Part shown: positions 5,853 through 29,883 of the stretch, in pieces
Layout of the letters: each line of letters begins with the position of its first letter
How positions within the stretch are numbered: position 1 is the stretch's first letter
Origin: an uncultured Clostridia bacterium
GTDB lineage: Bacteria > Bacillota > Clostridia > Lachnospirales > CAG-274
Reading direction: 5' to 3'
NCBI GenBank assembly: GCA_947624015.1
Contig: CANQIA010000003.1
Span: forward strand, 101,541 to 133,540
Length of the DNA: 32,000 nt
Made by a program: the position numbers and the translations under genes
The notes under the pieces: generated by a model
Databases searched by the model: none
What the model saw: only the letters and a program-made list of their open reading frames with translations
What the model was told of the DNA's origin: nothing

Positions 5853-6179
5853 TATTTTTGATTTTATCAAAGCTCATGTTTTGAAACATATTTATTTTTC
5901 CGAAATTTGTATAAAGAAGATGGTAATAAATAGGTTTGGCGTGTGATCAGGTAACTAAGAATTTTTTCCATTACATTATTATAAGCATATATTTGGTCAA
6001 TGTTGCCATAATTTCTATATTAAAACCGGTGCAAAATAATTTGCTATGATGGTTAATATCCGATCACGCTTGTATCTGCAACGCAAAAATATATATATCT
6101 TATACATATAATATAAAATTGCAATGTAAAAATAGATGTAAAACTTAAAATTTATAACATCTCACAAAGGAGTAAAAAC

Positions 6180-7121: not shown

Positions 7122-7137
7122 AAAAGGAGCTTATGCT

Positions 7138-8658: not shown

Positions 8659-8749
8659 GAAAAATTTATATAAGTAATGTTTTCGATCAGTAATTAAGAA
8701 AAATATATATTTTACTATCAATATAAAGTCCGAAAAAGGAGAATTACAT

Positions 8750-9799
8750 ATGAAAAAAGCACTGATAACCGGCATTACCGGTCAGGACGGCTCTTATTTA
8801 GCCGAATTTTTAATAGAAAAAGGCTATGATGTACATGGTGTTACTCGCCGTGCATCTATTTCAAATACAGCAAGGATAGATCATCTTATTGCGGATAATT
8901 TAATTACTCTCCATGATGGCGATCTGTCCGATTCATCGTCATTGATGCGTATCATCGCTCTTGTTCAACCTGACGAGATATACAATCTGGCAGCTCAGAG
9001 TCATGTTCAGGTCTCATTTGATGTCCCTGAATATTCGGGAGATATAGACGCATTGGGCTGTCTGAGGATCCTTGAGGCTGTGCGTATACTTGGTATGACT
9101 AAAAAGACTAAAATATATCAGGCTTCCACATCCGAGCTGTACGGCAAAGTTGAGGAAATTCCTCAGAATGAGAATACACACTTTCATCCATACAGCCCCT
9201 ATGCTGTAGCAAAGCAGTATGGCTTCTGGATAACAAAGGAGTACAGAGAAGCTTACGGCGTGTTTGCTGTAAACGGTATTTTGTTTAATCACGAATCCGA
9301 GAGACGTGGCGAAAATTTTGTTACAAGGAAAATAACTCTTGCCGCAGGTCGTATTGCAGAAGGCTTACAAGATTATCTTGAGCTTGGCAATCTTGATTCA
9401 CTTCGGGATTGGGGCTATGCAAAGGATTATGTTGAGTGTATGTGGCTTATTATGCAACAGGACAAGCCCGAGGATTTTGTTATTGCTACCGGCGTACAGC
9501 ATACCGTAAGAGATTTTACGGAAAAAGCTTTTGCCGCTAATGGTATAGCACTTCGCTGGGAAGGTAATGGCATCGATGAAAAGGGTTATGATTCACAAAC
9601 AGGCAAAATGCTTGTATGCGTAAACCCACAATGGTTCAGACCCACCGATGTGGACAACCTTTTGGGCGATCCCACTAAAGCAAGAACTGTTTTGGGTTGG
9701 GATCCGCAAAAAACAAGCTATGAAGAACTTATCAAAATAATGGCTGAACATGACAGAATGCTTGCCAAACGTGAAAAAGCTATGAAAAAATTACAGTAA
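8750..9799 (+). CDS. gmd: GDP-mannose 4,6-dehydratase
   Basis: Diagnostic N-terminus [30 protein letters not shown], plus [15 protein letters not shown] and [29 protein letters not shown]. Confidence 0.97.
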
Positions 9800-9819
9800 T
9801 ACATAAAGAAGGTAAAATT

Positions 9820-10764
9820 ATGATGGATAAAAATTCTAAGATATATGTAGCAGGTCATAGAGGAATGGTAGGTTCGGCTATTGTAAGAGAGCTTGAAAGA
9901 CAGGGATATACAAATATTATTACGAGGACTCATGCCGAGCTTGATTTATGCAGACAAGCCGATGTCGAGAAATTCTTTTCTGAAGAAAAGCCCGAATATG
10001 TTTTTCTGGCTGCCGCAAAGGTAGGCGGAATTGTTGCCAACCAAAACGCATTGGCAGACTTTATGTACGACAATATGATACTTGAAATGAATGTGATACA
10101 TTCAGCATGGCAGAATGGGTGTAAAAAGCTGGAGTTTTTAGGCTCCTCTTGCATTTATCCTCGTATGGCTCCACAGCCTATGCAGGAAAGCTGTTTGCTC
10201 ACATCGGAGTTGGAAAAGACCAATGAAGCATATGCCCTTGCGAAAATTTCCGGTCTTAAATATTGCGAATTTCTCAACAGACAGTATGGCACCGATTACA
10301 TAAGCGTTATGCCTACTAATCTGTACGGTCCAAATGATAATTATCATCCTGTTCACAGCCATGTACTTCCGGCGCTTATACGTCGCTTCCACGAAGCTAA
10401 GGAACAGGGACTTGGATCTGTGACCTGTTGGGGTGACGGTTCGCCGTTAAGAGAATTTTTGTATGTGGATGACCTTGCTGACCTCTGCGTATTCCTTATG
10501 AATAACTACAGCGGAAATGAAACTGTAAATGCAGGTACAGGCGAGGAGCTTACAATAAAGGAGCTTACAGAGCTTGTGGCTGATGTTATAGGGTATAAAG
10601 GCGAGATCAAGTGGGATACTTCAAAGCCTAACGGTACTCCAAGAAAGCTCCTGGATGTTTCCAAAGCCACAAAATTAGGATGGACATACAAGACGGAATT
10701 AAAAGATGGAATAAAGATGTCCTATGAGGATTTTCTCAATAATCCCATGAGGGCAGAAAGATAA
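9820..10764 (+). CDS. fcl: GDP-L-fucose synthase (GDP-4-keto-6-deoxymannose 3,5-epimerase/4-reductase)
   Basis: KIYVAGHRGMVGSAIVRELERQGY, AAAKVGGIVANQ, YALAKISGLKYCE and PTNLYGPNDN. Lies immediately downstream of gmd. Confidence 0.95.
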   Translation: MMDKNSKIYVAGHRGMVGSAIVRELERQGYTNIITRTHAELDLCRQADVEKFFSEEKPEYVFLAAAKVGGIVANQNALADFMYDNMILEMNVIHSAWQNGCKKLEFLGSSCIYPRMAPQPMQESCLLTSELEKTNEAYALAKISGLKYCEFLNRQYGTDYISVMPTNLYGPNDNYHPVHSHVLPALIRRFHEAKEQGLGSVTCWGDGSPLREFLYVDDLADLCVFLMNNYSGNETVNAGTGEELTIKELTELVADVIGYKGEIKWDTSKPNGTPRKLLDVSKATKLGWTYKTELKDGIKMSYEDFLNNPMRAER

Positions 10765-10783
10765 ATACAGGGAGAGAATGTAT

Positions 10784-12100
10784 ATGAATATTATATTGCT
10801 ATCGGGAGGCTCAGGCAAAAGACTGTGGCCATTGTCAAACGATATACGTTCCAAGCAGTTCATAAAAATATTCAAAACAGATGACGGCACATATGAATCT
10901 ATGGTTCAACGAGTATATCGTCAGATAAAAAACATAGACAAAAATGCAAACATAACAATAGCAACCTCAAAAACACAGGTTTCGGCTATACATAATCAGC
11001 TTGGCGAAGATGTAGGCATATCTGTTGAGCCTGCAAGACGTGATACATTTCCGGCTATTGCTCTTGCGACGTCATATCTTTACGACGTGCGGGGAATCTC
11101 GGAAGATGAAGCTGTTGTTGTATGCCCTGTTGACCCTTATGTTGAGGATGATTACTTTAGGGCATTAAAAGCACTTTATGAACAGGCGAAAAAAGGCGAA
11201 GCCAATATTGTACTTATGGGTATAAAGCCTACATATCCAAGTGAAAAATATGGTTATATCATACCCGAAAGCAGCGACAGTATAAGCAAGGTTTCTACCT
11301 TTAAGGAAAAACCCGATGAAGCGACAGCCAAAAAGTATATAAACCAAGGAGCATTATGGAATGGCGGTGTGTTCGCATATAAGCTTAAATATGTGCTTGA
11401 CAAAGCCCATGAGCTTATAGATTTTACGGATTATGAGGATCTGTTTTCAAAGTACGATACTTTGGACAAAATAAGCTTTGACTATGCTGTTGCGGAGAAG
11501 GAAAAAATCATACAGGTAATGCGTTTTTCGGGACAGTGGAAGGACTTGGGTACCTGGAATACTTTAAGCGAGGCTATGGGCGAAAATACCGTTGGCAGCG
11601 CTATTATGAATGATAAATGCAATAACGTGCATATTATAAACGAGCTTGATGTACCTGTGCTTGCTATGGGTTTGAATGATGTTATTATATCAGCCAGTCC
11701 CGAAGGAATACTTGTATCCGATAAGGAACAGTCCAGTTATATCAAGCCCTATGTAGATGATATAGATCAGCAGATAATGTTTGCGGAAAAATCCTGGGGA
11801 AGTTTCAGAGTGCTTGATGTTGAGGAAGAAAGCCTTGCTATAAAGGTAACTCTTAACGCAGGCAATAGTATGAATTACCACAGTCATAGAAACAGAAACG
11901 AGGTTTGGGTAGTTATTTCGGGGGAAGGTCGTACAGTTGTAGACGGTATGGAGCAGGAGGTCAGCACAGGTGATGTTATAACAATGCAGGCAGGCTGTCG
12001 GCATACTGTTATTGCTACAACGGAGTTGAAGCTTATAGAAGTACAGTTGGGCAAGGAGATAAGTGTTCATGACAAGCAAAAATACCCACTTGAGCAATAA
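10784..12100 (+). CDS. manC: Mannose-1-phosphate guanylyltransferase with C-terminal cupin domain
   Basis: NTP-transferase loop MNIILLSGGSGKRLWPLS and a C-terminal cupin (GNSMNYHSHRNRNEVWVVISGEG...GDVITMQAGCRHTV). SD GGGAGAG favours ATG 10784 over 10778. Confidence 0.9.
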   Translation: MNIILLSGGSGKRLWPLSNDIRSKQFIKIFKTDDGTYESMVQRVYRQIKNIDKNANITIATSKTQVSAIHNQLGEDVGISVEPARRDTFPAIALATSYLYDVRGISEDEAVVVCPVDPYVEDDYFRALKALYEQAKKGEANIVLMGIKPTYPSEKYGYIIPESSDSISKVSTFKEKPDEATAKKYINQGALWNGGVFAYKLKYVLDKAHELIDFTDYEDLFSKYDTLDKISFDYAVAEKEKIIQVMRFSGQWKDLGTWNTLSEAMGENTVGSAIMNDKCNNVHIINELDVPVLAMGLNDVIISASPEGILVSDKEQSSYIKPYVDDIDQQIMFAEKSWGSFRVLDVEEESLAIKVTLNAGNSMNYHSHRNRNEVWVVISGEGRTVVDGMEQEVSTGDVITMQAGCRHTVIATTELKLIEVQLGKEISVHDKQKYPLEQ

Positions 12101-13076
12101 ACCATTTTTGCTTAAACCTGCAGGAAAAGACTATATATGGGGCGGTAGCAGATTAAACGATGATTTTGGCAAGGGAATACCTATGGAACCACTTGCCGAA
12201 ACATGGGAGTGTTCTACTCATCCCGATGGACCAAGCATTGCAATAAGTGGCGAATACAAGGGAATAACCTTAACACAAATTATTAAAGAGAATCCCGAAT
12301 ATTTGGGAACACATCCATCAACAAAAAATGAAATGCCAATACTTATAAAGCTTATAGATGCAAAAAAAGATCTGTCTGTACAAGTGCATCCCGATGATAA
12401 CTATGCAAGGAAAAATGAAAACGGACAGCTTGGCAAAACGGAAATGTGGTATGTTCTCGATGCGACAAAAGACGCAAAACTTATATATGGTTTAAAACAC
12501 GATACAACAGCCGACAAGCTAAGAAAAAGTATCGAAAACAGAACTATTGAAAAACATCTTCAAAAAATTTCCATAAAAAAGGACGATGTTTTTTATATAG
12601 AAGCAGGAACTATCCATGCAATAGGCGCAGGCGCTCTTATAGCGGAAATACAGGAAAATTCCAATATAACCTACAGGTTGTATGACTATGACCGCACAGA
12701 CAAAAGCGGAAATAAAAGGCAACTGCATATAAATAAGGCTCTTGAAGCTGCCAATTTAAAAAGCAGTAAAGAGCCTGTACAGCCAATGAGAGTGCTGAAA
12801 TATCGGCAAGGCTGCGCATCTGAATTATTGTGCAGATGTAAATATTTTGAGGTATACAGAATGCTTTTGAATACAGAGAGATGCAGAAAATATGTAGGAT
12901 ATCAGGCAGACAGCACCTCTTTCAGAGTTTTATTATGCATAAACGGATGCGGAACAATGCTTTTGGACAATAATGAGGTAATAAGCTTTTTTAAAGGAGA
13001 CTGTATATTTGTGCCTGCAGAGTCTGTAAAGATAAGGTTGCATGGTAAGGCGGAATTTTTAGATGTAAGGGGATAA
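12069..13076 (+). CDS. manA: Mannose-6-phosphate isomerase, class I
   Basis: PMI-I metal/active-site motifs LSVQVHPDD, KTEMWYVL and GTIHAIGAG. SD AAGGAGA (12053-12059) is 9 nt before ATG 12069. The gene overlaps the manC 3' end. Confidence 0.9.
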   Translation: MTSKNTHLSNKPFLLKPAGKDYIWGGSRLNDDFGKGIPMEPLAETWECSTHPDGPSIAISGEYKGITLTQIIKENPEYLGTHPSTKNEMPILIKLIDAKKDLSVQVHPDDNYARKNENGQLGKTEMWYVLDATKDAKLIYGLKHDTTADKLRKSIENRTIEKHLQKISIKKDDVFYIEAGTIHAIGAGALIAEIQENSNITYRLYDYDRTDKSGNKRQLHINKALEAANLKSSKEPVQPMRVLKYRQGCASELLCRCKYFEVYRMLLNTERCRKYVGYQADSTSFRVLLCINGCGTMLLDNNEVISFFKGDCIFVPAESVKIRLHGKAEFLDVRG

Positions 13077-15448: not shown

Positions 15449-16492
15449 GTGAGTAATATAAAAAGGAATTCAGGTATAGAATTGCTTAGAATTATCTGCG
15501 TTATCTTGATTATTTGTCATCACTATTCTTTCCATGGGGGCTTCCTTCAATTTTCTTACGATGATATTGGCTTAAATATAATTTTTATTCAAATGTTAAA
15601 TATGTTTGGAAAGGCTTCTTGTTCTGTGTTTGCATTAATATCAGGATATTTTTTGATCAATGCAAAGAATGACATTAATTACTATAAGAAAATTGTTAAT
15701 TTAATATTTGAAATGTTCTTTTATTCGGTATTGATATTATTTATCGCTTTATTAACAAGAGCCGTTCCTATATCCGGAGTAGCTGTTGTTAAGGCTCTTT
15801 TTCCTATATTTTGGGGCAATTGGTATGTTATTTTTTATATAATTCTTTATTTAATTGTACCTTTTATAAATCCGGGACTCAAAGCTATGAATAAGAAAGA
15901 ATATACACTATTTTTAATGCTTTTATTATTTATATGGTGTATTGTTCCAACATTTACAGGTACAGCTTAGGAAATGTGTTCAATGGATTTCTTTATAGTT
16001 ATGTATCTTATTGGCGCATATATAAGATTATATATAAAAAGTATTTATAGTAATAGAAGAAAAATATTTTTGTGTTTGGTTTTGTCAACCCTTATAATGC
16101 TTTTAACCGTTCCCGTAATTGATTTTATTGGAAAAATATTAAAAGCAAACGTTATAATAAACCATGCAACATATTTTATGAAATATAATTCTATTATTTC
16201 TGTGGTGTGGGCAGTATCTGTATTTTTGTTCTTTTGTACTTTAAAATTCAAAAGCAATATAGTAAATTATATTGCAGGGTCAGTACTTGGAATATATCTT
16301 ATACATGACAATTTTATTTTAAGACAATATATATGGCAAGTAATTTACCCTAACAGTAATTATATAGAATTTCCATATATCCATGCTGCGACAAAAATAT
16401 TCTCGGTATTTGCTATATGTCTTATTATAGATATACTTAGAAGAATAACTATAGAAAAAGTATTCAATAGCTGTTTAAGAAATTTATTTTAA
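15449..16492 (+). pseudogene. Acyltransferase family 3 (polysaccharide O-acyltransferase) interrupted by a single in-frame TAG
   Basis: The two track ORFs (15449-15970 and 15974-16492) are in the same frame, separated only by TAG 15968-15970 plus one codon (...PTFTGTA*EMCSMDFFIVMYLIGAYIRLY). Together they give a ~345-aa, ~10-helix protein with the N-terminal acyltransferase-3 motif (IELLRIICVILIICHHY). GTG start with SD AAGGAGGG. The second half has no convincing SD of its own. Confidence 0.8.
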
Positions 16493-16746
16493 CTAAATTT
16501 CTTTAGTGTTGAAGTAAAGCATTCACATATCTTCTTACAAATAATTTAATTAAAAATTTGATTTAGTATATATAGGGATCAATATTATTACATATAAGAA
16601 AATAATTTTGTTCAAATTGGATATGTGTAAATTAAAACATATTCATGAGCAGTTATAAAGAAAAATTATTTTTACGGTTTTATGGATTGCAAACAAATGT
16701 AACCGATTTCCCGAATTTATTTGAAAATTTATATGGAGATTCGAGC

Positions 16747-17547
16747 ATGAAAAAAATAACATCTGAAGAAATGAAAGCCTTACAAGTCAATATACTTATT
16801 GATTTTGCAAAATTTTGTGATAAAAACAATCTGCATTATACATTAGGATACGGAACACTTTTAGGAGCTATAAGGCATAAAGGCTTCATACCGTGGGATG
16901 ATGATATTGATGTATTTATGCCACGACCTGACTACGAAAAGTTTATTAATATAATACGGGGAAATAAAATTTCTCCTTTTATAGATGTTATCTCATATAA
17001 ATTTGGCAATAGCACATACCCATTTATAAAACTTATAGATAATCGTACAGAAGTAGAAGAAAAATTTGTAAAGGATGTAAGAATTGGTGTATGGATTGAT
17101 ATATTTGCTATTGATGGAAATTTTAATAATAGTTTTCTTAGTATGCTCCATTACAAAACAGCAGCGCTCATAAGAAAAGTAGTTGAAATCAAAAGAAATA
17201 ATTTTGGCTCGGGAACAACAACGACAAAGAGAATTTTAAAAAGCTTTATATATCCTTTTACTATATTCTTTTCTTTTGATTTTTTATTAAAAACAATGGA
17301 TAGAGTATGTTGTTTAAGAAAATATGATAAAAGTAATTATATAGGATGCGTTGTTTGGGGATATGGCAGCAGAGGGCGAATTGAGAAGAAAGGTTTTTTT
17401 GAATGCATAGATGTGGAATTTGAAGGACATATTTTTAAAGTCACATCAAATTATGACAAATATTTAAAAAATATATACGGAAACTATATGCAGCTTCCAC
17501 CTGAGAATAAACGTATTAAACACAATTATGAAGCTTGGTGGAAATAA
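16747..17547 (+). CDS. licD: LicD-family phospho(no)-alcohol transferase
   Basis: LicD core LGYGTLLGAIRHKGFIPWDDDIDVFMPRPDYEKF with a typical N-terminal LQVNILIDFAKFCDKNNLHY. SD GGAGA precedes ATG 16747; the track's upstream extension from 16645 is not LicD-like. Confidence 0.85.
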   Translation: MKKITSEEMKALQVNILIDFAKFCDKNNLHYTLGYGTLLGAIRHKGFIPWDDDIDVFMPRPDYEKFINIIRGNKISPFIDVISYKFGNSTYPFIKLIDNRTEVEEKFVKDVRIGVWIDIFAIDGNFNNSFLSMLHYKTAALIRKVVEIKRNNFGSGTTTTKRILKSFIYPFTIFFSFDFLLKTMDRVCCLRKYDKSNYIGCVVWGYGSRGRIEKKGFFECIDVEFEGHIFKVTSNYDKYLKNIYGNYMQLPPENKRIKHNYEAWWK

Positions 17548-17571
17548 AATATAGCGTAAAGGAGTAAACCA

Positions 17572-19581
17572 ATGAAAGCATTAATATTAAACTCAGGCTT
17601 AGGTAGTCGCATGGGAGTCCTTACCTCAGAGCATCCCAAATGCATGACCGAGATTTCAAGCAGAGAAACGATTTTAAGCAGACAGCTTAAACAGCTTGCA
17701 GACGCAGGTATAAACGAAGTGATAATGACAACGGGACTTTTTGACGGTGTTCTTGTGGACTACTGCCACAGTCTTGACCTGCCTTTACATATCACATTCA
17801 TTAAAAATCCAAAATACAAGGCAACAAACTATATTTATTCCATTTACTGTGCAAAGGATCATCTTGACGATGACATTGTTCTTATGCACGGTGATATTGT
17901 ATTTGAGAATGAAGTTTTTGACAAGCTTATTGCCTGTGAAGAAAGCTGTATGGTTGTAAGCTCTACCCTTTCACTTCCCGAAAAGGATTTTAAAGCCGTT
18001 ATACAGAATGGTCTTATCAAAAAAATAGGTATTGAGTTCTTTAATGAGGCTATGGCTGCACAGCCCTTATATAAGCTGAATAAAGAGGATTGGAAGGTAT
18101 GGCTTGACAGTATTGTTTCCTACTGTGAAAGCGGTAAGACTGACTGCTATGCTGAAAATGCCTTTAACGATGTTTCAGGTAAATGCAAGTTATTCCCTCT
18201 TGATGTTAAAAATATGCTCTGTAATGAGATAGACAACCCGGAGGACTTGGCTGTCGTATCATCAAGGCTTAAAGAAATAGAAAACAGGACTGTGTATATG
18301 TGCTTTTCAACAGACATCATACACAGCGGTCACATTGATATAATCAAAAAGGCTGAAAGGCTTGGCAAGCTAATTATAGGCGTTTTATCCGATAAAGCTA
18401 TATCAAGCTACAAGAGATTTCCCCTTCTTCCCTTTGAGGAAAGAAAAACTATGTTCAAAAATATAGCAGGGGTTTACGATGTTGTGGAACAGAAAAATCT
18501 CAGCTATAAGGAAAATCTCGAAAAATATCAGCCCGATTATGTAGTGCATGGTGATGACTGGGTATCAGGTTTTCAGAAGCCTATAAGAGATGAGGTCGTA
18601 TCAATACTTGCTTCCTATGGCGGAATACTTGTAGAGTATCCCTATTCCAACGATGAAAAATACAAGGCTCTCGACGACAGAGCAAGAGCTGACTTATCTC
18701 TGCCCGATATAAGACGTGCAAGGCTTAAAAAAGCTCTTGATATGAAGGGGACTATTACGGCTATGGAGGCTCACAGTGGTATAACAGGACTTATAGTTGA
18801 AAAAACAAAGGTATACCAGAATGGCGAAACACACGAATTTGACGCTATGTGGATAAGCTCTCTCTGTGATTCTACGGCAAAGGGAAAACCCGATATCGAG
18901 CTTGTAGATATGACATCCCGTTTCCGTACCATTGACGACATCATGGAGGTCACTACAAAACCTATCATATTTGACGGAGATACAGGCGGACTTACGGAGC
19001 ACTTTGTATACACGGTAAAGAGCCTTGAGCGTATGGGCGTTTCAATGGTAATAATAGAGGACAAGACAGGTCTTAAAAAGAACTCCCTCTTTGGTACGGA
19101 AGTTGAACAGACTCAGGACAGTATAGAAAACTTCAGCGCTAAAATAGCCGCAGGCAAGAAAGCTCAGAAAACAAAGGACTTTATGATATGCGCCCGTATT
19201 GAGAGCCTTATACTTGAAAGAGGTATGGAGGACGCATTGGAAAGAGCCTTTGCATTTACCGTGGCGGGAGCAGACGCCATTATGATACACAGCAGGAAAA
19301 AGGACCCTGCTGAGATATTTGAATTTGTTGAAAAATTCAGAGAAAAGGACAAGACTACACCTATCGTTGTTGTCCCCACTTCCTTCAATACGGTTACGGA
19401 GGAGGAGTTCAAAGAACACGGTGTAAACATAATCATATATGCAAATCAGCTTACAAGGACAGGCTTCCCCGCTATGCAGAATGCAGCTAGGACTATACTT
19501 GAAAATCACAGGGCTAAGGAATGTGATGATATGTGTATGTCAATAAAGGACATAATAACGCTTATTCCCGAAGAAGGCTGA
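17572..19581 (+). CDS. Three-domain fusion: LicC/PntC-like nucleotidyltransferase + HxGH cytidylyltransferase-like domain + phosphoenolpyruvate phosphomutase
   Basis: aa 1-~240 MKALILNSGLGSRMG... (LicC-type NTP-transferase). aa ~245-375 CFSTDIIHSGHIDIIKKAERLG (HSGH at nt 18322-18333; TagD/ECT-type fold). aa ~380-669 belong to the isocitrate lyase/PEP mutase superfamily and carry the Ppm-diagnostic EDKx5NS motif (EDKTGLKKNS, nt 19057-19086). SD AAAGGAG. Confidence 0.9.
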   Translation: MKALILNSGLGSRMGVLTSEHPKCMTEISSRETILSRQLKQLADAGINEVIMTTGLFDGVLVDYCHSLDLPLHITFIKNPKYKATNYIYSIYCAKDHLDDDIVLMHGDIVFENEVFDKLIACEESCMVVSSTLSLPEKDFKAVIQNGLIKKIGIEFFNEAMAAQPLYKLNKEDWKVWLDSIVSYCESGKTDCYAENAFNDVSGKCKLFPLDVKNMLCNEIDNPEDLAVVSSRLKEIENRTVYMCFSTDIIHSGHIDIIKKAERLGKLIIGVLSDKAISSYKRFPLLPFEERKTMFKNIAGVYDVVEQKNLSYKENLEKYQPDYVVHGDDWVSGFQKPIRDEVVSILASYGGILVEYPYSNDEKYKALDDRARADLSLPDIRRARLKKALDMKGTITAMEAHSGITGLIVEKTKVYQNGETHEFDAMWISSLCDSTAKGKPDIELVDMTSRFRTIDDIMEVTTKPIIFDGDTGGLTEHFVYTVKSLERMGVSMVIIEDKTGLKKNSLFGTEVEQTQDSIENFSAKIAAGKKAQKTKDFMICARIESLILERGMEDALERAFAFTVAGADAIMIHSRKKDPAEIFEFVEKFREKDKTTPIVVVPTSFNTVTEEEFKEHGVNIIIYANQLTRTGFPAMQNAARTILENHRAKECDDMCMSIKDIITLIPEEG

Positions 19582-19593
19582 CAAGGAGAAAAT

Positions 19594-20706
19594 ATGAGTG
19601 AGCAGATCATTATAAGGACAGACGGAAACTATGATGAATTGAATACATATCTTGAAAACAAGGGTATTAAGAGGATATTTCTTGTATGTGACAGCTCAAT
19701 AGGCTTTCTCGGAATAAACAGCTTTTTTGAAAGCCTTAAAAATATCTATGTTACAAGATTCAGTGACTTTGAGCCAAATCCATTGTATGAGTCTATTGTT
19801 AAGGGTGTTGACGCATTTAACAAAGAAAAATGCAATTGTATCATAGCTGTAGGCGGCGGAAGCGCAATAGATGTTGCCAAGTGCATAAAGCTATATTCTC
19901 CTATGGATAAAAGCAAAAATTATCTGGAACAGAAAATAGTACCCAATGACATACCGTTTATAGCTGTTCCCACGACTGCCGGAACAGGCAGCGAAGCAAC
20001 AAGGTTTGCCGTTATATATTACAAGGGAGAAAAGCAGTCTGTAACGGATATAAGCTGTATTCCCGATGCAGTTCTTATGGATAGTTCCGTACTTGACACA
20101 CTGCCAATATATCAAAGAAAAGCCACAATGCTTGACGCTCTCTGTCATTCCGTAGAATCCTTTTGGTCTGTAAATTCAAATGACGAAAGCAAGGAATATT
20201 CCAAGAAAGCTCTTGAAATGATCATAGGAAATATGGACTCATATCTGACGAATGACAAAGACGGCAATACAGCCATGATGGAGGCGGCGCACCTTGCAGG
20301 CAAGGCTATAAATATAACCCAGACAACGGCAGCACATGCTATGTGCTATAAGCTTACAAGTCTTTATAAAATAGCCCATGGTCACGCTGCGGCATTGTGC
20401 TTGCCTGTACTGTGGGAATATATGCTAAGCAACATGGATAAATGTATTGACAGCAGAGGCAAGGTCTATCTTAAAGCTGTTTTTGACGATATTGCCAAGG
20501 TTTTGGGCTGTGATACACCGATAAAGGCTGTGGAAAAGCTTAAAGCAATAATAAACAGCTTGGAATTGCCGATACCAACAGCAGATGAAAAGGACTTTGA
20601 AATATTAAGAACGTCCGTAAATCCCATTAGGCTAAAAAATAATCCTATTGCATTGGATACCGATGCCATTGACGAAATATATCACAGAATACTTAATACG
20701 AAATAA
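19594..20706 (+). CDS. Group III iron-containing alcohol dehydrogenase, probable phosphonoacetaldehyde reductase (2-hydroxyethylphosphonate-forming)
   Basis: Fe-ADH signatures AVGGGSAIDVAKCIK, VPTTAGTGSE and the His cluster AAHAMCYKLTSLYKIAHGHA. Sits between the Ppm and Ppd genes, where PhpC/FomC/DhpG-type reductases occur. The family call is strong; the substrate call rests on context. Confidence 0.75.
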   Translation: MSEQIIIRTDGNYDELNTYLENKGIKRIFLVCDSSIGFLGINSFFESLKNIYVTRFSDFEPNPLYESIVKGVDAFNKEKCNCIIAVGGGSAIDVAKCIKLYSPMDKSKNYLEQKIVPNDIPFIAVPTTAGTGSEATRFAVIYYKGEKQSVTDISCIPDAVLMDSSVLDTLPIYQRKATMLDALCHSVESFWSVNSNDESKEYSKKALEMIIGNMDSYLTNDKDGNTAMMEAAHLAGKAINITQTTAAHAMCYKLTSLYKIAHGHAAALCLPVLWEYMLSNMDKCIDSRGKVYLKAVFDDIAKVLGCDTPIKAVEKLKAIINSLELPIPTADEKDFEILRTSVNPIRLKNNPIALDTDAIDEIYHRILNTK

Positions 20707-20721
20707 TCGGAGGAGTTGTAT

Positions 20722-21849
20722 ATGAAAGCAGAAAGTTTAGTCAGAATAATAGGTTCGGATTTTTATACGGGCGTACCGGATTCACAGATAAAGGCGCTTT
20801 GCAATTATCTTATGAATACATACGGCATAGATCCTAAGCATCACTTAATAGCGGCAAATGAAGGCAACTGTACCGCTCTTGCGGCAGGCTATCATCTTGC
20901 CACGGGGAAAGTGCCTGTTGTATACATGCAGAACAGCGGCGAGGGAAATATAATAAACCCGGTCGCATCGCTTCTCAATGACAAGGTTTATGCCATACCC
21001 TGTATATTTATAATAGGATGGAGAGGAGAGCCGGGTATTCACGATGAGCCTCAGCACATATATCAGGGCGAAGTGACCGTAAAGCTCCTTGAGGATATGG
21101 ATATAAAGCCTTTCATAATTGGCACGGATACCACCGATGAAGAAGTTGAAAAGGCTATGTCCGATTTCAGAGAGATATTAGCAAAGGGCAAAAGCGTTGC
21201 CTTTGTAATACGCAAGAACGCTCTGACCTACGACGGAAAAGTCAAGTACGAAAACGATAATAAAATGGTCAGAGAGGAAATAATACAGCATATAGTCAAA
21301 TATACAGGCGAAGACCCTGTTGTTTCAACTACGGGAAAGGCAAGCAGAGAGCTTTTTGAAACCAGAGTTGCAAACGGTCAAAGCCATAAATACGACTTCC
21401 TTACGGTAGGTTCTATGGGACACAGTTCATCCATAGCTTTAGGTATTGCCATAAACAAGCCCGATACAAAAATATGGTGTATTGACGGGGACGGGGCTGT
21501 GCTTATGCATATGGGTTCTATGGCGCTTATGGGCGCAAATGCTCCCCAAAATATGGTGCATATAGTTATAAATAACGGCGCTCATGAAACCGTAGGCGGT
21601 ATGCCGACTGTGGCTGAAAAGATAAACCTTGTTGAGATCGCAAGAGCTTGCGGTTATCCCAATGCTATATGCGTTGACAACTTTAACGACCTTGACAAAG
21701 AGCTTGAAAAAGCAAAGGTCAAAAACGAACTGAGCTTCATTGAGGTAAAGTGTTCCATAGGTGCAAGGGATGATCTTGGCAGACCTACTACTACTGCATT
21801 GGAGAATAAAGAATATTTTGTTGGTTATCTTAAAGAGCTCAGCAATTAG
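20722..21849 (+). CDS. ppd: Phosphonopyruvate decarboxylase (ThDP-dependent)
   Basis: Single-chain Ppd/AepY-like protein: FYTGVPDSQIK and ANEGNCTALAAGYHLATGK in the N-terminal half, and ThDP motif GDGAVLMHMGSMALMG...VINNGAHE. SD GGAGGAG favours ATG 20722 over TTG 20716. Confidence 0.9.
   Translation: MKAESLVRIIGSDFYTGVPDSQIKALCNYLMNTYGIDPKHHLIAANEGNCTALAAGYHLATGKVPVVYMQNSGEGNIINPVASLLNDKVYAIPCIFIIGWRGEPGIHDEPQHIYQGEVTVKLLEDMDIKPFIIGTDTTDEEVEKAMSDFREILAKGKSVAFVIRKNALTYDGKVKYENDNKMVREEIIQHIVKYTGEDPVVSTTGKASRELFETRVANGQSHKYDFLTVGSMGHSSSIALGIAINKPDTKIWCIDGDGAVLMHMGSMALMGANAPQNMVHIVINNGAHETVGGMPTVAEKINLVEIARACGYPNAICVDNFNDLDKELEKAKVKNELSFIEVKCSIGARDDLGRPTTTALENKEYFVGYLKELSN
21671..21813 (+). repeat. 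143-nt near-identical direct repeat, copy A (inside the intact ppd 3' end)
   Basis: Manual alignment to 23991-24133 (offset 2320) gives 141/143 identical. The differences are at 21727 (G vs A) and 21760 (G vs A). Confidence 0.9.
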
Positions 21850-23261: not shown

Positions 23262-23780
23262 ATGGATTTAAAAAAACTGAACTATTTAGTCATAGATGTT
23301 GATGGAACAATGACCGACGGTGGGATTTATTATGATGAGAACGGAAGCGAAATAAAAAAATTTAATACCAGGGATGCGGCAGGCTTTTTTGCTGCAAAAG
23401 CGGCAGGAATAAAAATAATTGTACTGACGGGCAGAGAGTGTGCGGCTACGACCCGAAGAATGAATGAGTTAAAGGTTGATTTTATTTTTCAGAACATAAA
23501 AAACAAAAAAGAATTCTTGTCAGTGTTTATGGAAGAAAAGAATATCGTCAGAAAAGAAATTGGTTATATAGGCGATGATCTCAATGACCTTGCGCCAATG
23601 AAGCTAACGGGATATATAGCTTGTCCATCCGACAGTTGTCGGGAAATAAAAGATATAGCTGATTATATAAGCTCCAATAAAGGCGGTCATGGCGCAGTAC
23701 GGGATATAATAGAACACATATTGCGCGAGCGTGGAATATGGAATAAAGTTGTATCAGAAATTTATATGAGCGGTATATAA
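23262..23780 (+). CDS. HAD-IIIA phosphatase of the KdsC/YrbI family (3-deoxy-ulosonate phosphate phosphatase-like)
   Basis: Motif I VIDVDGTMTDG, then NTRDAAG, the motif III/IV region IGDDLNDL, and the C-terminal GGHGAVRD typical of KdsC/KDN-9-P phosphatases. SD GAGGAG. Confidence 0.8.
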   Translation: MDLKKLNYLVIDVDGTMTDGGIYYDENGSEIKKFNTRDAAGFFAAKAAGIKIIVLTGRECAATTRRMNELKVDFIFQNIKNKKEFLSVFMEEKNIVRKEIGYIGDDLNDLAPMKLTGYIACPSDSCREIKDIADYISSNKGGHGAVRDIIEHILRERGIWNKVVSEIYMSGI

Positions 23781-23932
23781 GAATTAATAAAAAGGATAAA
23801 TTATGTTTTAGAAATATAAACAGAAATTAACAATTTAAGTCTTAATGTGATTAAAAATAAAGTTTTTTATATACTTGGAGAAGTGTAACTGACATTGATG
23901 TAGAAAAGGGGTTAATATCAACAAAATCGCCC

Positions 23933-24166
23933 AAAGTAGATTATAGCAATGTGATAATAGCAAAAGCCTGCGGTTGTCTAAATGTAGTGTGCGTTGACAA
24001 CTTTAACGACCTTGACAAAGAGCTTGAAAAAGCAAAGGTCAAAAACAAACTGAGCTTCATTGAGGTAAAGTGTTCCATAAGTGCAAGGGATGATCTTGGC
24101 AGACCTACTACTACTGCATTGGAGAATAAAGAAAACTTTATGGATTACATAGAAAAATTGAAATAA
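23933..24166 (+). pseudogene. 3' remnant of a second phosphonopyruvate decarboxylase gene
   Basis: Translation (...KVDYSNVIIAKACGCLNVVCVDNFNDLDKELEKAKVKNKLSFIEVKCSISARDDLGRPTTTALENKENF...) matches only the last ~75 residues of the intact Ppd (EKINLVEIARACGYPNAICVDNFNDLDKELEKAKVKNELSFIEVKCSIGARDDLGRPTTTALENKEYF). There is no N-terminal or ThDP-binding part and no SD. Confidence 0.8.
23991..24133 (+). repeat. 143-nt near-identical direct repeat, copy B (inside the ppd remnant)
   Basis: 141/143 identical to 21671-21813. The flanks diverge abruptly (24 of 34 nt identical immediately upstream; poor similarity downstream). Confidence 0.9.
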
Positions 24167-24304
24167 TAAAAATGTAATATAAGCATGGTATGTTCTTCAA
24201 GGGGTTGTACTTTGGGATTTTTAGAATATTTTTTGCAAACCACCGAGCTTGTGCTTAATATTGTTTACAAGGTAAAGTATAGATATTTTTTGATGAATTT
24301 AACT

Positions 24305-24336
24305 ACGGCATCCGATTTAGATATATCGAATGCCGT
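24305..24336. terminator. Strong hairpin between convergent units (possible bidirectional terminator or RNA stabiliser)
   Basis: acggcatccgat (24305-24316) pairs with atcgaatgccgt (24325-24336): 11 bp plus one C/A mismatch, 8-nt loop. It lies between the + strand ppd remnant and the stop of the - strand gene (24396). Neither side has a clear U-tract, hence the low confidence. Confidence 0.35.
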
Positions 24337-24395
24337 AAAGCTATATAATATTAATATTGAGTATTTATACAAATTTAATTATTTATAATTTCAAC

Positions 24396-25730
24396 TCAGC
24401 AATAATTAACTTGATCTTTCCAGCTCTGCCACAATATAAGAGAGGAAGCACTACTTGGTACCATATCAAACCATCTAAACTTATTTTCAAAGCTTATGCG
24501 GCTATTGTCGTTATATTTATAATTTAAAAATCTTCCGGAAATACCATCAGGTAATATGCATATAAAATTAGAATCAAAATCTGCTGTGTTTAAAAAATAA
24601 ATATAGTCTCCATCTCTTGTAAGATTAGGATTTTCATGCTTATATTCTACTAGAGTATTAAATTTCATATATACTTGTTCGGATGTAATATTTAATTTTA
24701 TATAAATAAGTAATTGTGGTTTACCTCCTTCTACTAAATTCCTGTAAATATATATTATTTTGCACTTATCAATATTATTATTGTCTATATTTAGTTCATC
24801 CTTGGCTTCTTTTTTTATTGCATTATAAATTCCATCCTTTATATCCTTAGCTTCCTTTATATATTTATATTTAAAAGATGCTTGAACACCTAGCCCTAAA
24901 TTATCTTTTTCTACGGAAAGATTTTTGGAGCGTTTTACAAATACTATTTTTTCATCAATTGTTTCTACTACTGCATTAAAGCCCAAATGATTTGATAATT
25001 TAGAATCGCTTAATGAACCTACTGAATTATCTAAAACAAATAGCTTTCTAAGATTAATGTTTCCATTAATTCTAAAATCCATAGCCCTGTTTGTAATAAG
25101 GGAATAAAAATATTGGGTTTCTCCCAAGTATACTTTTATAAAGTTTTTGTCTTTATCTATATGATTTACCCGATATAATTTGTTGTTATATTTTGTACTT
25201 TGTGAATGAGCTGAGAATAAAAAATTATGATTTTCAATTGAAAAGATAGGCGGCTTGTATTTTTTATCACTTTCAAATTCAAATAATAATATATTCTCGT
25301 CTATAATAATATATTCAGGTATAAGAGGACTTTTAATTTCTGCCCCATATGTACAATTTGAGACATTATTTGTGTGCTTTTTTGCTAATTTAAGATTTCT
25401 TTTGCTTACGCATTTCTGGGTATATTTCATTAAATTATCTTTGCTATAAATTTCACATAGTTTAGCATAATCTTCTGAAAGCTTATCGCTATCTTCTAAT
25501 ATTTTTTTAAAAAAATTAAAACAAAAGATATATACTATCAATGCAGCAAACAAAGTTGCCAAAATGTTAATAGTAAATGTGTACGCTATGCTATTTTTAT
25601 AGGCACGAAAAAAATACATTGCAGATGCTATAATTATGATAATTATAGTTACAAGAGCATATGTATATTGCCCCTTTTCACTAAATTTCCTAAGAAATCT
25701 ATATATTCTGTTTTTATTTTTTCTTCTCAT
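24396..25730 (-). CDS. Hypothetical membrane-anchored protein (N-terminal 2 TM helices + ~350-aa soluble region with a degenerate Nudix-like motif)
   Basis: SD AAGGAGG (25738-25744) lies 7 nt before ATG 25730 (MRRKNKNRIYRF...). Two hydrophobic helices (YALVTIIIIIIASAMYFF; FTINILATLFAALIVYIFCFNFF). The C-terminal region LGFNAVVETIDEKIVFVKRSKN...GLGVQASF...AIKKEAKDELNI resembles the Nudix fold entry and box (Gx5Ex7REUxEExGU) with substitutions at conserved positions. No family is confidently recognised. Confidence 0.8.
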   Translation of the reverse strand: MRRKNKNRIYRFLRKFSEKGQYTYALVTIIIIIIASAMYFFRAYKNSIAYTFTINILATLFAALIVYIFCFNFFKKILEDSDKLSEDYAKLCEIYSKDNLMKYTQKCVSKRNLKLAKKHTNNVSNCTYGAEIKSPLIPEYIIIDENILLFEFESDKKYKPPIFSIENHNFLFSAHSQSTKYNNKLYRVNHIDKDKNFIKVYLGETQYFYSLITNRAMDFRINGNINLRKLFVLDNSVGSLSDSKLSNHLGFNAVVETIDEKIVFVKRSKNLSVEKDNLGLGVQASFKYKYIKEAKDIKDGIYNAIKKEAKDELNIDNNNIDKCKIIYIYRNLVEGGKPQLLIYIKLNITSEQVYMKFNTLVEYKHENPNLTRDGDYIYFLNTADFDSNFICILPDGISGRFLNYKYNDNSRISFENKFRWFDMVPSSASSLILWQSWKDQVNYC

Positions 25731-25752
25731 GACATATCCTCCTTTAACTAAC

Positions 25753-25780
25753 ATTATAACACATTTTTTTATTAAATCAA
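25753..25780 (-). promoter_or_regulatory. Sigma-A-type promoter for the 2-TM gene
   Basis: On the - strand: -35 TTGATT (25780-25775), 16-nt spacer, extended -10 TGT-TATAAT (TATAAT = 25758-25753). This predicts a very short leader ending in the AAGGAGG SD. Confidence 0.5.
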
Positions 25781-26238
25781 TACATAATTTAAAAATACTT
25801 AAAGACTTATTTTAAACGCTGAAGGAATTTTTGGATTTGACATTTTTATTTTGAGAATATTAATTTATTGTTCCTTAAAATAATATGTTTGTCAGAGATT
25901 GATCCAATGAATAATTTGATAATTTTTTTATAAAAATATTCTCGGGATAATTATTGTATTCTTTTAGATCTTGAACAGTTTTTCGTGTAGCAATCTTTTT
26001 TTATATTATTATATTGAATTGATATGTTAAAAACTGTTTAATGTATTTGATTATGTATCTGGCATTTATGATATTGAAATACAATAATTGTTTATTGTTT
26101 TATCTTGTCCTAAAAATCTACGCCAGTGATTATATTACAGGAACTCCAAAGGATCTTTATATATTGCTCTATAAAAGCTAAGTACTATAAATAGTTCTGT
26201 TATTGTTTTCATAAAGATATACTGTATAAATTTACATT

Positions 26239-26275
26239 AAAAAAGCACCCTTGAATTTTTCAAAAGTGCTTTTTT
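26239..26275. terminator. Rho-independent terminator (bidirectional shape) ending the thi operon
   Basis: aaaagcac (26241-26248) pairs with gtgctttt (26266-26273), with an inner ttgaa/ttcaa stem. T6 follows the GC core when read on the - strand, and also on the + strand. It lies ~115 nt past the thiE stop. Confidence 0.55.
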
Positions 26276-26393
26276 AATGCCGCATTATTTTGCTCTTCTT
26301 GGAAACAAAATATAAATTTGTAAGTTCCATAAGCTTTTTTGTGTGCAGGGGCGCTGTTTCGCTGTAACTTTTTGCAGATATATTATATCGGAT

Positions 26394-26939
26394 CTATTCC
26401 TCTTTCATTTTCATGCTTTCGGACATCATACACACGCCAAAAGCCCCGACGTTTATGCAGCTTAAGGCGTTTTGGGGATCTATGCCGCCAAGGGCATACA
26501 CGGGTATATCTACAGCCTTGCATATTTTTTCAAGCTCTGCAAGTCCCTTTGGAGCAAGACCCTTTTTGCAGTCGGTTTCAAAAATATGGCTGAAGGTAAT
26601 ATAGCTTGCTCCGTAATTTTGGCAGGTCAAAGCCTCATTGATGCTGTGGGTGGATACGCCCTTTAATTCAAAATCCCTTATGAGGTCCCTATTTTCGATA
26701 AAAAGAGAGTAGGGCAAGTGTATTTTTTTGTATCCAAGCTCAAGCGCCGTGTTGATAAATGTATGGAGTATTATTTTATCGCTTATATCAATTGCTCTTT
26801 TGGCAAGAAAAGTATACTCCGCTTGAGGCAGATCCTTTTCCCTGAGTATTATATACCGATAATCGGATCTGTGGAGTATTTCGATCTGCTTAAGCAGATC
26901 ATCTGTTAAATTCCTGTTTGTTATAGCTATTTTAAACAT
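26394..26939 (-). CDS. thiE: Thiamine-phosphate synthase family protein (ThiE; a TenI-like alternative is not excluded)
   Basis: TIM-barrel ThiE/TenI pattern: GVSTHSINEA, GASYITFSHIFETDCK and IPVYALGGI. Short (181 aa). Its start overlaps the thiH stop by 8 nt (ATGTTTAA). Confidence 0.75.
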   Translation of the reverse strand: MFKIAITNRNLTDDLLKQIEILHRSDYRYIILREKDLPQAEYTFLAKRAIDISDKIILHTFINTALELGYKKIHLPYSLFIENRDLIRDFELKGVSTHSINEALTCQNYGASYITFSHIFETDCKKGLAPKGLAELEKICKAVDIPVYALGGIDPQNALSCINVGAFGVCMMSESMKMKEE

Positions 26940-29515: not shown

Positions 29516-29713
29516 TCAACCACCGCCTACAAAGTTGACTATCTCTATAATATCCTCATCGTTTATTATATAGCTGTCGTACTCCTTCTTTGAGAGTATA
29601 CTGCCGTTTACTTCAACGGCAATGCGGGTCTTATTGTAGCCGTTTTCGTCAAGATATTGCCCCAGGGTATTGCCTTTTGCTTCGGGAGCTGCCTTTCCGT
29701 TTATTTTTATCAT
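29516..29713 (-). CDS. thiS: Sulfur-carrier protein ThiS
   Basis: 65-aa ubiquitin-like protein ending in ...NFVGGG (C-terminal Gly-Gly). INGK start and VEVNG core. SD GGAGA at 29719-29723. Confidence 0.9.
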   Translation of the reverse strand: MIKINGKAAPEAKGNTLGQYLDENGYNKTRIAVEVNGSILSKKEYDSYIINDEDIIEIVNFVGGG

Positions 29714-29721
29714 ATTTTTCT

Positions 29722-29848
29722 CCTTTCAAAATAAAAAATCACACAAAGGATCGCACCATAAATTCGGCTCCTTACGGAAGCCTACGCCCTTTCAAGGTGG
29801 TGTACCCCTTTGTGTGATCTTTATTTACATGATCATCACTTTTTATTT
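29722..29848 (-). promoter_or_regulatory. thiS leader with terminator-embedded structured element; candidate thiS-motif (HMP-PP) riboswitch, not a THI-box
   Basis: On the - strand, a 12-bp basal stem (29818-29807 pairs with 29749-29738; GAUCACACAAAGG.../...CCUUUGUGUGAU) encloses ~57 nt. The enclosed part contains a GGCUUCCGUAAGGAGCC hairpin (29782-29766) and CACCA/UGGUG pairing. UUUUUUAUUUU follows directly, then the SD and the thiS AUG. The THI-box hallmark CUGAGA is absent. Confidence 0.5.
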
Positions 29849-29854
29849 TAAGTT

Positions 29855-29883
29855 ATTTTAACATAATATTTTATGACTGTCAA
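29855..29883 (-). promoter_or_regulatory. Sigma-A-type promoter of the thi operon
   Basis: On the - strand: consensus -35 TTGACA (29883-29878, overlapping the feoB stop codon), 17-nt spacer, extended -10 TGT-TAAAAT (TAAAAT = 29860-29855). Confidence 0.6.

Follow-up and report, generated by a model that had tools for sequence, protein, structure and literature searches.

A predicted membrane-anchored, NUDT22-like Nudix protein encoded beside a polysaccharide locus in an uncultured Clostridia bacterium

Gene organization and expression signals

The stretch of DNA analysed here, referred to below as the window, comprises 32,000 nucleotides of contig CANQIA010000003.1 (positions 101,541 to 133,540, assembly GCA_947624015.1) from an uncultured Clostridia bacterium of the CAG-274 lineage. 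Between a thi operon and a polysaccharide locus it carries a gene for a predicted membrane-anchored, NUDT22-like Nudix protein, which is the subject of this report. The gene lies on the minus strand, co-oriented with the thi operon and convergent with the polysaccharide locus. An initial annotation of this DNA had set it apart from thi as the only minus-strand gene between the two loci, but the thi operon is itself encoded on that strand.

Open reading frame (ORF) calling delimits a frame of 452 amino acids at positions 24396-25754. This is a real gene, and its product is most likely a protein of 444 residues that starts with MRRKNKN at the ATG at position 25730, with the coding sequence and its stop codon spanning 24396-25730, as judged from the ORF, the homologs and an AlphaFold model. 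The shorter start is favoured because the ATG of the longer frame (25754) falls within the -10 hexamer of a predicted promoter. The ortholog found at another genome locus (L001), 88% identical at the DNA level and 90% at the protein level, begins with the identical MRRKNKN. The gene is under purifying selection, since the ratio of nonsynonymous to synonymous substitution rates (dN/dS) relative to this ortholog is 0.14.

The predicted promoter, of sigma-70 type and recognized by its match to the consensus, extends over 25753-25780 on the minus strand and reads TTGATT-16-TGnTATAAT, with the -35 element at 25780-25775, a 16-nt spacer and an extended -10 element at 25761-25753. It scores 10/12 in addition to the extended -10, and is the top-scoring site across positions 23700-26500, an AT-rich region in which the total number of promoter-like sites is not elevated (16 found, against 20.3 expected from shuffled sequences). 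A perfect Shine-Dalgarno sequence (AAGGAGG, 25738-25744) lies 7 nt before the ATG. The -35, the -10 and the TG are identical at L001, where the Shine-Dalgarno sequence is also kept, so that both signals, as first read by the initial annotation, are present and conserved. Carrying its own set of predicted signals, the gene appears to form a separate, autonomous transcription unit.

Protein architecture and structural similarity to human NUDT22

The protein, whose segments are all given here by their minus-strand positions, starts with a basic N-terminus (9 K/R among the first 19 residues), followed by a first transmembrane (TM) helix at residues ~21-42 (25605-25670; hydropathy peak 23-41, model helix 21-42) and a second at residues ~48-74 (25509-25589; hydropathy peak 56-74, model helix 48-83). 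Hydropathy and the AlphaFold model agree on this arrangement, which had already been described in the initial annotation. By the positive-inside rule, the topology would be N-in, with the soluble domain facing the cytoplasm. A juxtamembrane motif, E79-D80-x2-K83-L84-x3-Y88...Y95 (25446-25496), is invariant in a family alignment of 51 sequences (A1). The soluble part then comprises a beta-rich domain at residues ~96-245 (24996-25445), delimited by its structural match to NUDT22 and by invariant columns, which ends in the invariant motifs TNRAMD and SNHLGFN, and a Nudix-fold domain at residues ~246-444 (24399-24995), delimited by phmmer and Foldseek.

The AlphaFold model, built with alignment A1 as input, has a pLDDT of 91.2 and a pTM of 0.89. 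When it was compared with the PDB using Foldseek, the best six matches were all chains of human NUDT22 (E values of 1e-15 to 2e-14, target-normalised TM-scores of 0.65-0.71), with alignments of 275-328 columns that cover both domains of these 282-301-residue chains; all other Nudix enzymes in this search had E values of at least 4e-4. NUDT22 is also the best PDB match by sequence (E 0.074), phmmer aligning residues 245-359 with NUDT22 118-241. A match to a Rep protein at E 0.24, obtained in a search of the PDB with the family profile that was weaker than the search with the single sequence, was dismissed as noise. Residues ~246-444 of the model moreover gave matches to dozens of experimental Nudix hydrolase structures (NUDT22, NUDT7, CoA pyrophosphatase, RppH, IDI, GDPMH) with a Foldseek probability of ~1.0, so that, as modelled, this domain has the Nudix fold at superfamily level. 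The architecture of a membrane anchor followed by a Nudix-like domain, as initially proposed, is in line with these matches. The same annotation could not assign the protein to any described family, and had named beforehand such an assignment as an outcome speaking against its interpretation; Foldseek places the whole soluble part beside human NUDT22.

Profile searches of the protein itself were uninformative: scans of Pfam, NCBIfam and PADLOC gave nothing significant, and the Pfam Nudix model PF00293 gave no match even at E<=10. Matches to DUF3810, SK_channel and a type I toxin were discounted as sub-threshold and driven by the TM helices. The canonical Nudix box, G-x5-E-x7-R-E-U-x-E-E-x-G-U, is not matched. 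The Nudix-like helix AIKKEAKDELNI (residues 304-315), which in the AlphaFold model matches Nudix structures, instead contains K-E-A-K-D-E-L-N-I (R->K, second-last E->D, G->N), a mapping that was given correctly in the initial annotation. The whole variant element, G300...K307-E308-A-K-D311-E312-L-N-I315, lies at 24786-24833. In the alignment to NUDT22, KEAKDELNI pairs with QEICDEVNL, and the E->D and G->N substitutions are common to both proteins. The family consensus of the box is xEIxDELxI, and the NUDT22-type variant x-E-U-x-D-E-x-N-U is matched.

Conservation within alignment A1 bears on how this variant is to be read. E308 is kept in 48 of the 51 sequences, D311 in 41, E312 in 50 and E334 in all 51, and the window protein retains 66 of the 81 positions that are conserved at >=80% in the family. 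Twenty polar positions are invariant, including E79, K83, Y95, T213-N214-R215, D218, S246-N247-H248, K275, E334 and G336-P338-Q339. Because the family as a whole conserves the acidic residues, the box is probably a working NUDT22-type variant that has not decayed, and not the degenerate core that had been proposed. The loop E334-G-G-K-P-Q339 (24714-24731), in which E334, G336, P338 and Q339 are each present in 51 of 51 sequences, aligns beside NUDT22 'ARNETSAGR' and may provide a third carboxylate or a substrate loop.

Human NUDT22 (PDB 5lf9, 5lor, 5lou, 5r50) is a UDP-glucose/UDP-galactose pyrophosphatase. It has been described as an outlier among human Nudix proteins, lacking a conventional box (PMC5688067), and its activity, in the part of PMC7729866 that cites Carter 2018, is stated to need two glutamates coordinating Mg2+. 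The window protein resembles it in the succession of an N-terminal beta domain and a Nudix domain over ~320 columns (TM-score 0.70), in the identical type of non-canonical box, and in the conservation of the two Mg-binding glutamates. It differs in that identity is only ~15% and sequence E values are non-significant, in its GxSVGASLK sequence where NUDT22 has a GGHPE loop, and in the addition of a basic N-terminus, two TM helices and the invariant ED..KL..Y juxtamembrane helix. Unlike NUDT22, it is not predicted to be soluble, since two N-terminal TM helices are present in it as in almost every full-length relative; many bacterial members also differ in having a PP2C-fold phosphatase partner (see below). 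The confident structural model points to a membrane-tethered bacterial relative of human NUDT22 that shares its two-domain fold.

Distribution and domain variants of the family

The protein is not an orphan, as had first been assumed, but belongs to a large unnamed family of about 1,500 clusters at 50% identity, whose members carry only the label 'hypothetical' and match no Pfam, NCBIfam or PADLOC model. A word-indexed search yielded 113 relatives, all annotated as 'hypothetical' and devoid of Pfam domains, and an exhaustive profile search extended this, at E<=1e-3, to 1,528 cluster representatives (50% identity), 466 of them with E<=1e-30. When the search for homologs was repeated with the alignment, few sequences and no names were gained, and no description of the family, or of a TM-Nudix/PP2C module, was found in the literature searched. 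Relatives occur mainly in gut Clostridia, and also in Bacilli, Erysipelotrichaceae, Desulfovibrionaceae, Psychrobacter, Alistipes, Actinomyces and Verrucomicrobia.

The TM hairpin is found in nearly all full-length members. Rare TM-less variants (P0005, P0009, P0022 and P0306) retain the complete catalytic module. In the first three of these a HEAT-like region takes the place of the hairpin, the N-terminal region of P0005 giving only HEAT/alphaRep-like repeat matches in a PDB sequence search. In P0306 the hairpin is replaced by a 130-aa N-terminal domain for which no PDB sequence match was found; the guess that it is a restriction-endonuclease-like domain was unsupported and was dropped. One further protein of the representative library, P0401 (1338 aa), has a Ser/Thr kinase domain, a P-loop (GGGGKS) and Sel1 repeats, and at its C-terminus a NUDT22-like domain in which the EGGKPQ loop is changed to ELKPQ. 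All N-terminally swapped relatives keep the ED..KL..Y helix, and the juxtamembrane motif is accordingly found in the TM-less P0005 and P0306 as well as in P0401.

A PP2C-fold partner in about a third of relatives

Clustering of neighbouring genes across 66 genome loci of the family revealed a single recurrent partner, a gene of ~270 codons located immediately downstream on the same strand, often with a 4-nt overlap (ATGA). It is present at 19 of the 61 judgeable loci (~31%), in three cases as a fusion, and more such fusions, of ~720 aa, exist among database proteins. The partner family (e.g. P0152-P0271; positions 11134-11943 of L020, and 18 other loci) has more than 360 homologs, all 'hypothetical', and the partner gave no Pfam match. 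Its invariant motifs are, in order, ED, DG, GDC, SDG and DDR. The partner model (pLDDT 96.5) matches PstP, tPphA, RsbX and Stp1 in Foldseek at E 3e-9, and on this structural evidence the partner is a predicted PP2C-fold phosphatase. Weak matches to caspases, obtained when the PDB was searched with a profile of the partner alignment, were judged to be noise. The partner shares its fold and the order of its motifs with these bacterial PP2C/PPM phosphatases, but it differs from them in giving no Pfam match, in a TM-score of only ~0.5, in an extra helical insert (residues ~131-177) and in its coupling to a Nudix-like enzyme. A tblastn search of the 32-kb window detected no PP2C-like sequence (best E 0.57), and the downstream flank of the gene contains the ppd remnant described below, with no PP2C-like gene or fusion.

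Association with a phosphatase raises the question whether the family might be regulatory. The NUDT22-like domain would then bind a nucleotide-sugar or an envelope precursor, with or without cleaving it, and thereby control a Ser/Thr phospho-signalling partner at the membrane, usually the PP2C-like phosphatase and rarely a kinase; the solitary window gene would encode a sensor that works by itself, or would be what remains of a pair. The frequent coupling or fusion to the PP2C-fold partner, the union of Pkinase, P-loop, Sel1 repeats and NUDT22-like domain in P0401, and the exchange of the N-terminal module for non-membrane domains in some relatives are all consistent with such a role. Against it stands the near-invariance of the catalytic carboxylates. 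The PP2C-like partner moreover carries no further domain, no conserved target or kinase gene accompanies the pair, most members, including that of the window, have no adjacent phosphatase, and the kinase fusion is a single case among the 150 representatives listed. We regard a sensor function as unlikely.

Genomic context of relatives

Three close relatives of the window gene are likewise located at the edge of a polysaccharide locus. At L001, the gene lies beside NTP_transf_5, UDP-galactopyranose mutase and PMI genes, ~11 kb of the polysaccharide locus of the window having been replaced, and on its other flank it has a DUF5688 gene and not thi. The gene of P0002 (53% identical) follows a different glycan locus, with Wzx, MptE-like, CMP-sugar synthase, HMGL-like and HAD genes, from which it is separated by transposase fragments. 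Among more distant relatives, at ~30% identity, P0088 is encoded between an Acyl_transf_3 acyltransferase and RmlB-RmlA-RmlC in an exopolysaccharide (EPS) locus, P0084 between a GT2x4 / ABC-2 block and GLF, and the L050 gene only 3 nt from a Bac_transf phosphoglycosyl transferase, while at L065 (4363-8271) two paralogs flank a UDP-glucose 6-dehydrogenase gene. Such paralog pairs, flanking or adjoining UDP-glucose 6-dehydrogenase, were seen at L065 and at L022 (6244-11107), in metagenome-assembled genomes of a Verrucomicrobiales and a Bacillota bacterium.

Glycan and nucleotide-sugar metabolism (GT2, NTP_transferase, Bac_transf, Ugd, RmlC, Epimerase_2, DegT) is the functional theme encountered most often in the set of 184 first and second neighbours, accounting for ~1/10 of them by a rough estimate that was taken from aggregated counts of the top 25 families and not protein by protein. 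This theme dominates among the 37 tight same-strand mates, where Polysacc_synt_2, GT2, Epimerase and NTP_transf_3 recur and DegT, Epimerase_2, Bac_transf, Wzx, Ugd and a TagF-like gene occur once each. The glycan association is thus real in several independent lineages, but it is partial.

The membrane anchor and this context may be combined in another way, with a substrate that is itself in the membrane. The anchor would set the Nudix site on undecaprenyl-PP-sugars or CDP-diacylglycerol, and the enzyme would free lipid phosphate from dead-end intermediates. Such a lipid-linked substrate would suit a TM hairpin that is so widely kept, the frequent position of the gene at the edges of variable glycan loci, and the neighbours at individual loci, namely the initiating phosphoglycosyl transferase adjoining the L050 gene and flippase-like genes elsewhere. 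It is harder to reconcile with P0005, P0009, P0022 and P0306, which keep the whole catalytic module without the hairpin, and with the nearest structural relative, which uses a soluble UDP-sugar; moreover, the literature searches brought up no Nudix enzyme known to use polyprenyl-PP-sugars. We consider this alternative improbable.

A glycan link might also be fortuitous. In that case the protein would be a general house-cleaning or pyrimidine-salvage Nudix enzyme, and its position next to polysaccharide loci would be incidental to recombination hot spots. NUDT22 has indeed been placed in pyrimidine salvage (PMC10101856), and the majority of family genes stand alone among unrelated neighbours, for instance RumA methyltransferases, transporters and regulators. 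A membrane anchor, however, would be unusual in a pool-sanitising enzyme, and chance can hardly account for the close linkage to Ugd, Rml, GT2 and Bac_transf that recurs in unrelated phyla. In our judgement this explanation is quite improbable.

Search for a link to phage defence

In two-TM defence effectors such as Pycsar 2TM-cNMP-binding, type II Thoeris TM-Macro and CBASS TM-SAVED proteins, an N-terminal TM hairpin precedes a nucleotide-binding cytoplasmic domain. The window protein has a similar layout, and the initial annotation had suggested a single-gene phage-defence or abortive-infection effector. Upon sensing infection, the TM helices of such an effector would damage the membrane, or its Nudix domain would deplete a nucleotide-sugar needed by the phage. 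Several features could be taken in this sense: the patchy spread of the family over Bacillota, Desulfovibrionaceae, Psychrobacter, Alistipes, Actinomyces and Verrucomicrobia, the low GC content and own predicted promoter of the gene, the variable N-terminal module, the few neighbours that match TIR, PDC-S01, PDC-S06 and KAP NTPase models, and the L074 gene, which has a 627-aa cytidine-deaminase-domain protein on one side and an AAA_15/21 ATPase on the other.

The wider evidence points the other way. The protein matches none of the PADLOC families at E<=10 (PADLOC-DB v2.0.0, dated 2023, newer systems being outside its scope). Defence-type matches concern a handful of the 184 neighbours (64 loci), which is about background, a comparison made without a formal statistic; these are isolated matches, apart from generic methyltransferase-type 'mad2' matches, and no recurrent location of homologs in defence islands, for which the initial annotation had proposed to look, was seen. 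At none of the 66 loci is a conserved cyclase, TIR, CD-NTase or other signal generator adjacent, and operon mates are glycan-synthesis genes. No relatives were found among 2.9 million viral contigs, and BFVD gave generic viral Nudix matches only, with no family members. The window protein thus differs from the TM effectors of Pycsar, Thoeris and CBASS in lacking both an adjacent cyclase or TIR and a PADLOC match, and in conserving the catalytic residues of a hydrolase. On present evidence a defence effector is very unlikely, and the finding would add no new defence system.

The L074 arrangement (4877-9358) belongs to the cluster of P0084, the most abundant relative with 208 members. The cytidine/dCMP deaminase protein and the AAA_15/AAA_21 ATPase that flank the gene there are of types known from defence systems, and the whole group lies inside a GT2 / ABC-2 / GLF glycan locus.

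Flanking regions, composition and neighbouring loci of the window

The gene has a GC content of 26% (20% at third codon positions, GC3), as opposed to 40-45% for the thi genes and feoB. Atypical beside thi, this low value matches that of the low-GC blocks (25-33%) of the adjoining polysaccharide locus and supports the view that the gene has the composition of acquired DNA; single-gene autonomy and atypical composition, both put forward in the initial annotation, stand. The long AT-rich non-coding flanks reported there are confirmed for the upstream side (663 nt, 24% GC), whereas the downstream flank (615 nt, 29% GC) is not entirely non-coding. There, on the plus strand at 23951-24166, a 71-aa ORF shares 81% identity with the last 68 residues encoded by the phosphonopyruvate decarboxylase-like gene at 20716-21849. 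This ORF is a gene remnant (the ppd remnant) and shows that recombination once took place where the polysaccharide locus ends. Direct or inverted repeats of the kind that flank mobile elements were not detected around the NUDT22-like gene, and Rfam scans of both flanks found no family.

Two hairpins border the gene on the minus strand. The first, at 26235-26279 after thiE, is an inverted repeat (I5) with 21-nt arms that are 90% complementary and a 3-nt loop, followed by a T-run. It resembles an intrinsic terminator and, read as such, would separate the gene from thiE and isolate it from the thi operon. The second, at 24300-24343, lies ~55 nt past the stop codon between the convergent genes. 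Its stem of 12-16 bp is very stable (minimum free energy of the whole segment -28.8 kcal/mol, z -5.06 relative to shuffled sequences), and a U-tract is lacking on both strands; the hairpin may terminate transcription in both directions or stabilise transcripts. Further upstream on the minus strand, at ~29525-29880 ahead of the thiS-thiF-thiG-thiH-thiE operon, no thiamine pyrophosphate (TPP) riboswitch or other Rfam family was found even at E<=1.

The polysaccharide locus (1-23780, plus strand) encodes glycosyltransferases and acyltransferases (with GT1 and Acyl_transf_3 among their families), LicD and NTP_transf_5 proteins, a fusion of cytidylyltransferase and PEP mutase, Fe-ADH, a phosphonopyruvate decarboxylase and a HAD phosphatase. 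It is a mosaic in GC content: the segments 8750-13076 and 17572-21849 have thi-like values of 38-43%, and the remaining genes lie at 25-33%, except for the terminal HAD gene (23262-23780) at 37%, which suggests swapped-in modules. Positions 16645-21849 form a phosphonate-decoration cassette (LicD, a 669-aa fusion of cytidylyltransferase and PEP mutase, an Fe-dependent alcohol dehydrogenase and a TPP-dependent decarboxylase), the gene content of which would imply a surface glycan bearing a C-P compound such as hydroxyethyl- or aminoethyl-phosphonate. Two adjacent ORFs of ~170 aa on the plus strand (15449-15970 and 15974-16492), each matching Acyl_transf_3, look like a single acyltransferase gene split by a stop or frameshift.

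Proposed function

From the fold, the variant Nudix helix, the conserved carboxylates, the selection on the gene and its genomic context, we infer a reaction, a substrate and a physiological role. We propose, with a probability of about 0.5, that the protein is a membrane-tethered, NUDT22-type pyrophosphohydrolase of nucleoside diphosphate (NDP)-sugar type that serves envelope glycan synthesis. A membrane-tethered NDP-sugar hydrolase linked to the neighbouring polysaccharide locus had been the less favoured suggestion of the initial annotation, and is the one that best fits the glycan genes around the window gene and its relatives. The N-terminal two-helix hairpin would hold a cytoplasm-facing enzyme on the membrane, where two glutamates would bind Mg2+ and the pyrophosphate link of a nucleoside-diphosphate-X would be hydrolysed as in NUDT22 (UDP-glucose -> UMP + glucose-1-phosphate). 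The substrate would most likely be a UDP-sugar or another NDP-sugar, or a related activated envelope precursor; the presence of UDP-glucose dehydrogenase, UDP-galactopyranose mutase and Bac_transf among the neighbours is suggestive only in this respect. Acting at the inner face of the membrane, the site of surface-glycan assembly, the enzyme could trim back or empty the pools of precursors on which the horizontally variable polysaccharide locus next to its gene draws. Because a PP2C-fold phosphatase is translationally coupled or fused to about a third of the relatives, a two-step breakdown may be envisaged for these, with pyrophosphate cleavage followed by dephosphorylation of the product by the partner. 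The window copy would work without such a partner.

As read here, the protein would act like NUDT22, and its genomic setting is comparable to that of the GDP-mannose mannosyl hydrolase Gmm/WcaH/NudD (PDB 1rya, 2i8t), which is encoded inside a surface-polysaccharide cluster, that of colanic acid in E. coli. Like the window protein, Gmm has the Nudix fold, and it hydrolyses a nucleotide-sugar, but it is a small, soluble, single-domain protein without membrane anchor and a weak fold match (E 6e-3 to 3e-2). Gmm moreover cleaves the glycosidic C-O bond, giving GDP and mannose (PMC7729866), as opposed to the pyrophosphate cleavage proposed here. The latter type of reaction, the Mg2+-dependent conversion of NDP-X to NMP and X-phosphate, is carried out by NUDT14, AspP/NudF and the CDP-Chase of B. 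cereus (PMC7729866). These enzymes, however, have a canonical Nudix box and other accessory domains, are soluble, and are not top structural matches of the window protein.

Several observations weigh against this proposal. Sequence similarity to NUDT22 is marginal (E 0.074 with the single sequence, 0.97 with the family profile), and on the present evidence homology rests mainly on predicted structure. The upstream G-x5-E of the Nudix box is absent, with G-x-S-V-G-A-S-L-K in its place. As to context, 44 of 65 family genes stand alone or have the PP2C-like gene as their only tight mate, most neighbourhoods consist of unrelated housekeeping genes, and in a phmmer census, which used a small reference set and was insensitive, glycan genes were evenly spread over +/-10 kb with no peak at the gene; the enrichment in glycan genes is a rough estimate that was not set against a formal background. 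The usual substrates of PP2C enzymes are phosphoproteins and not sugar phosphates, and the one relative fused to a protein kinase and P-loop NTPase hints at signalling rather than metabolism.

A bolder extension can be formulated, to which we attach a slim chance. A membrane-bound clearing enzyme and a PP2C enzyme acting on small molecules would together dismantle diphosphate-linked precursors that are stalled or not wanted, NDP-sugars or even undecaprenyl-PP-sugars, where the glycan is assembled; alternatively, the depletion of UDP-sugars would serve as an anti-phage measure. If true, the clearing enzyme would be a safety valve travelling with swappable polysaccharide loci, the NUDT22 fold would for the first time be given a function in bacteria, and a PP2C enzyme would be seen to act on a substrate other than protein.

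NUDT22 has been described as having a unique fold, and a large unannotated bacterial family now shows, as modelled, the same two-domain fold together with the variant helix. If the enzyme of the favoured proposal does trim nucleotide-sugar or lipid-linked precursors, the synthesis of capsules, EPS and teichoic acids in gut Clostridia would have a control point that has so far been overlooked, and both of the so far dark families, NUDT22-like and PP2C-like, would gain a name and a testable function.

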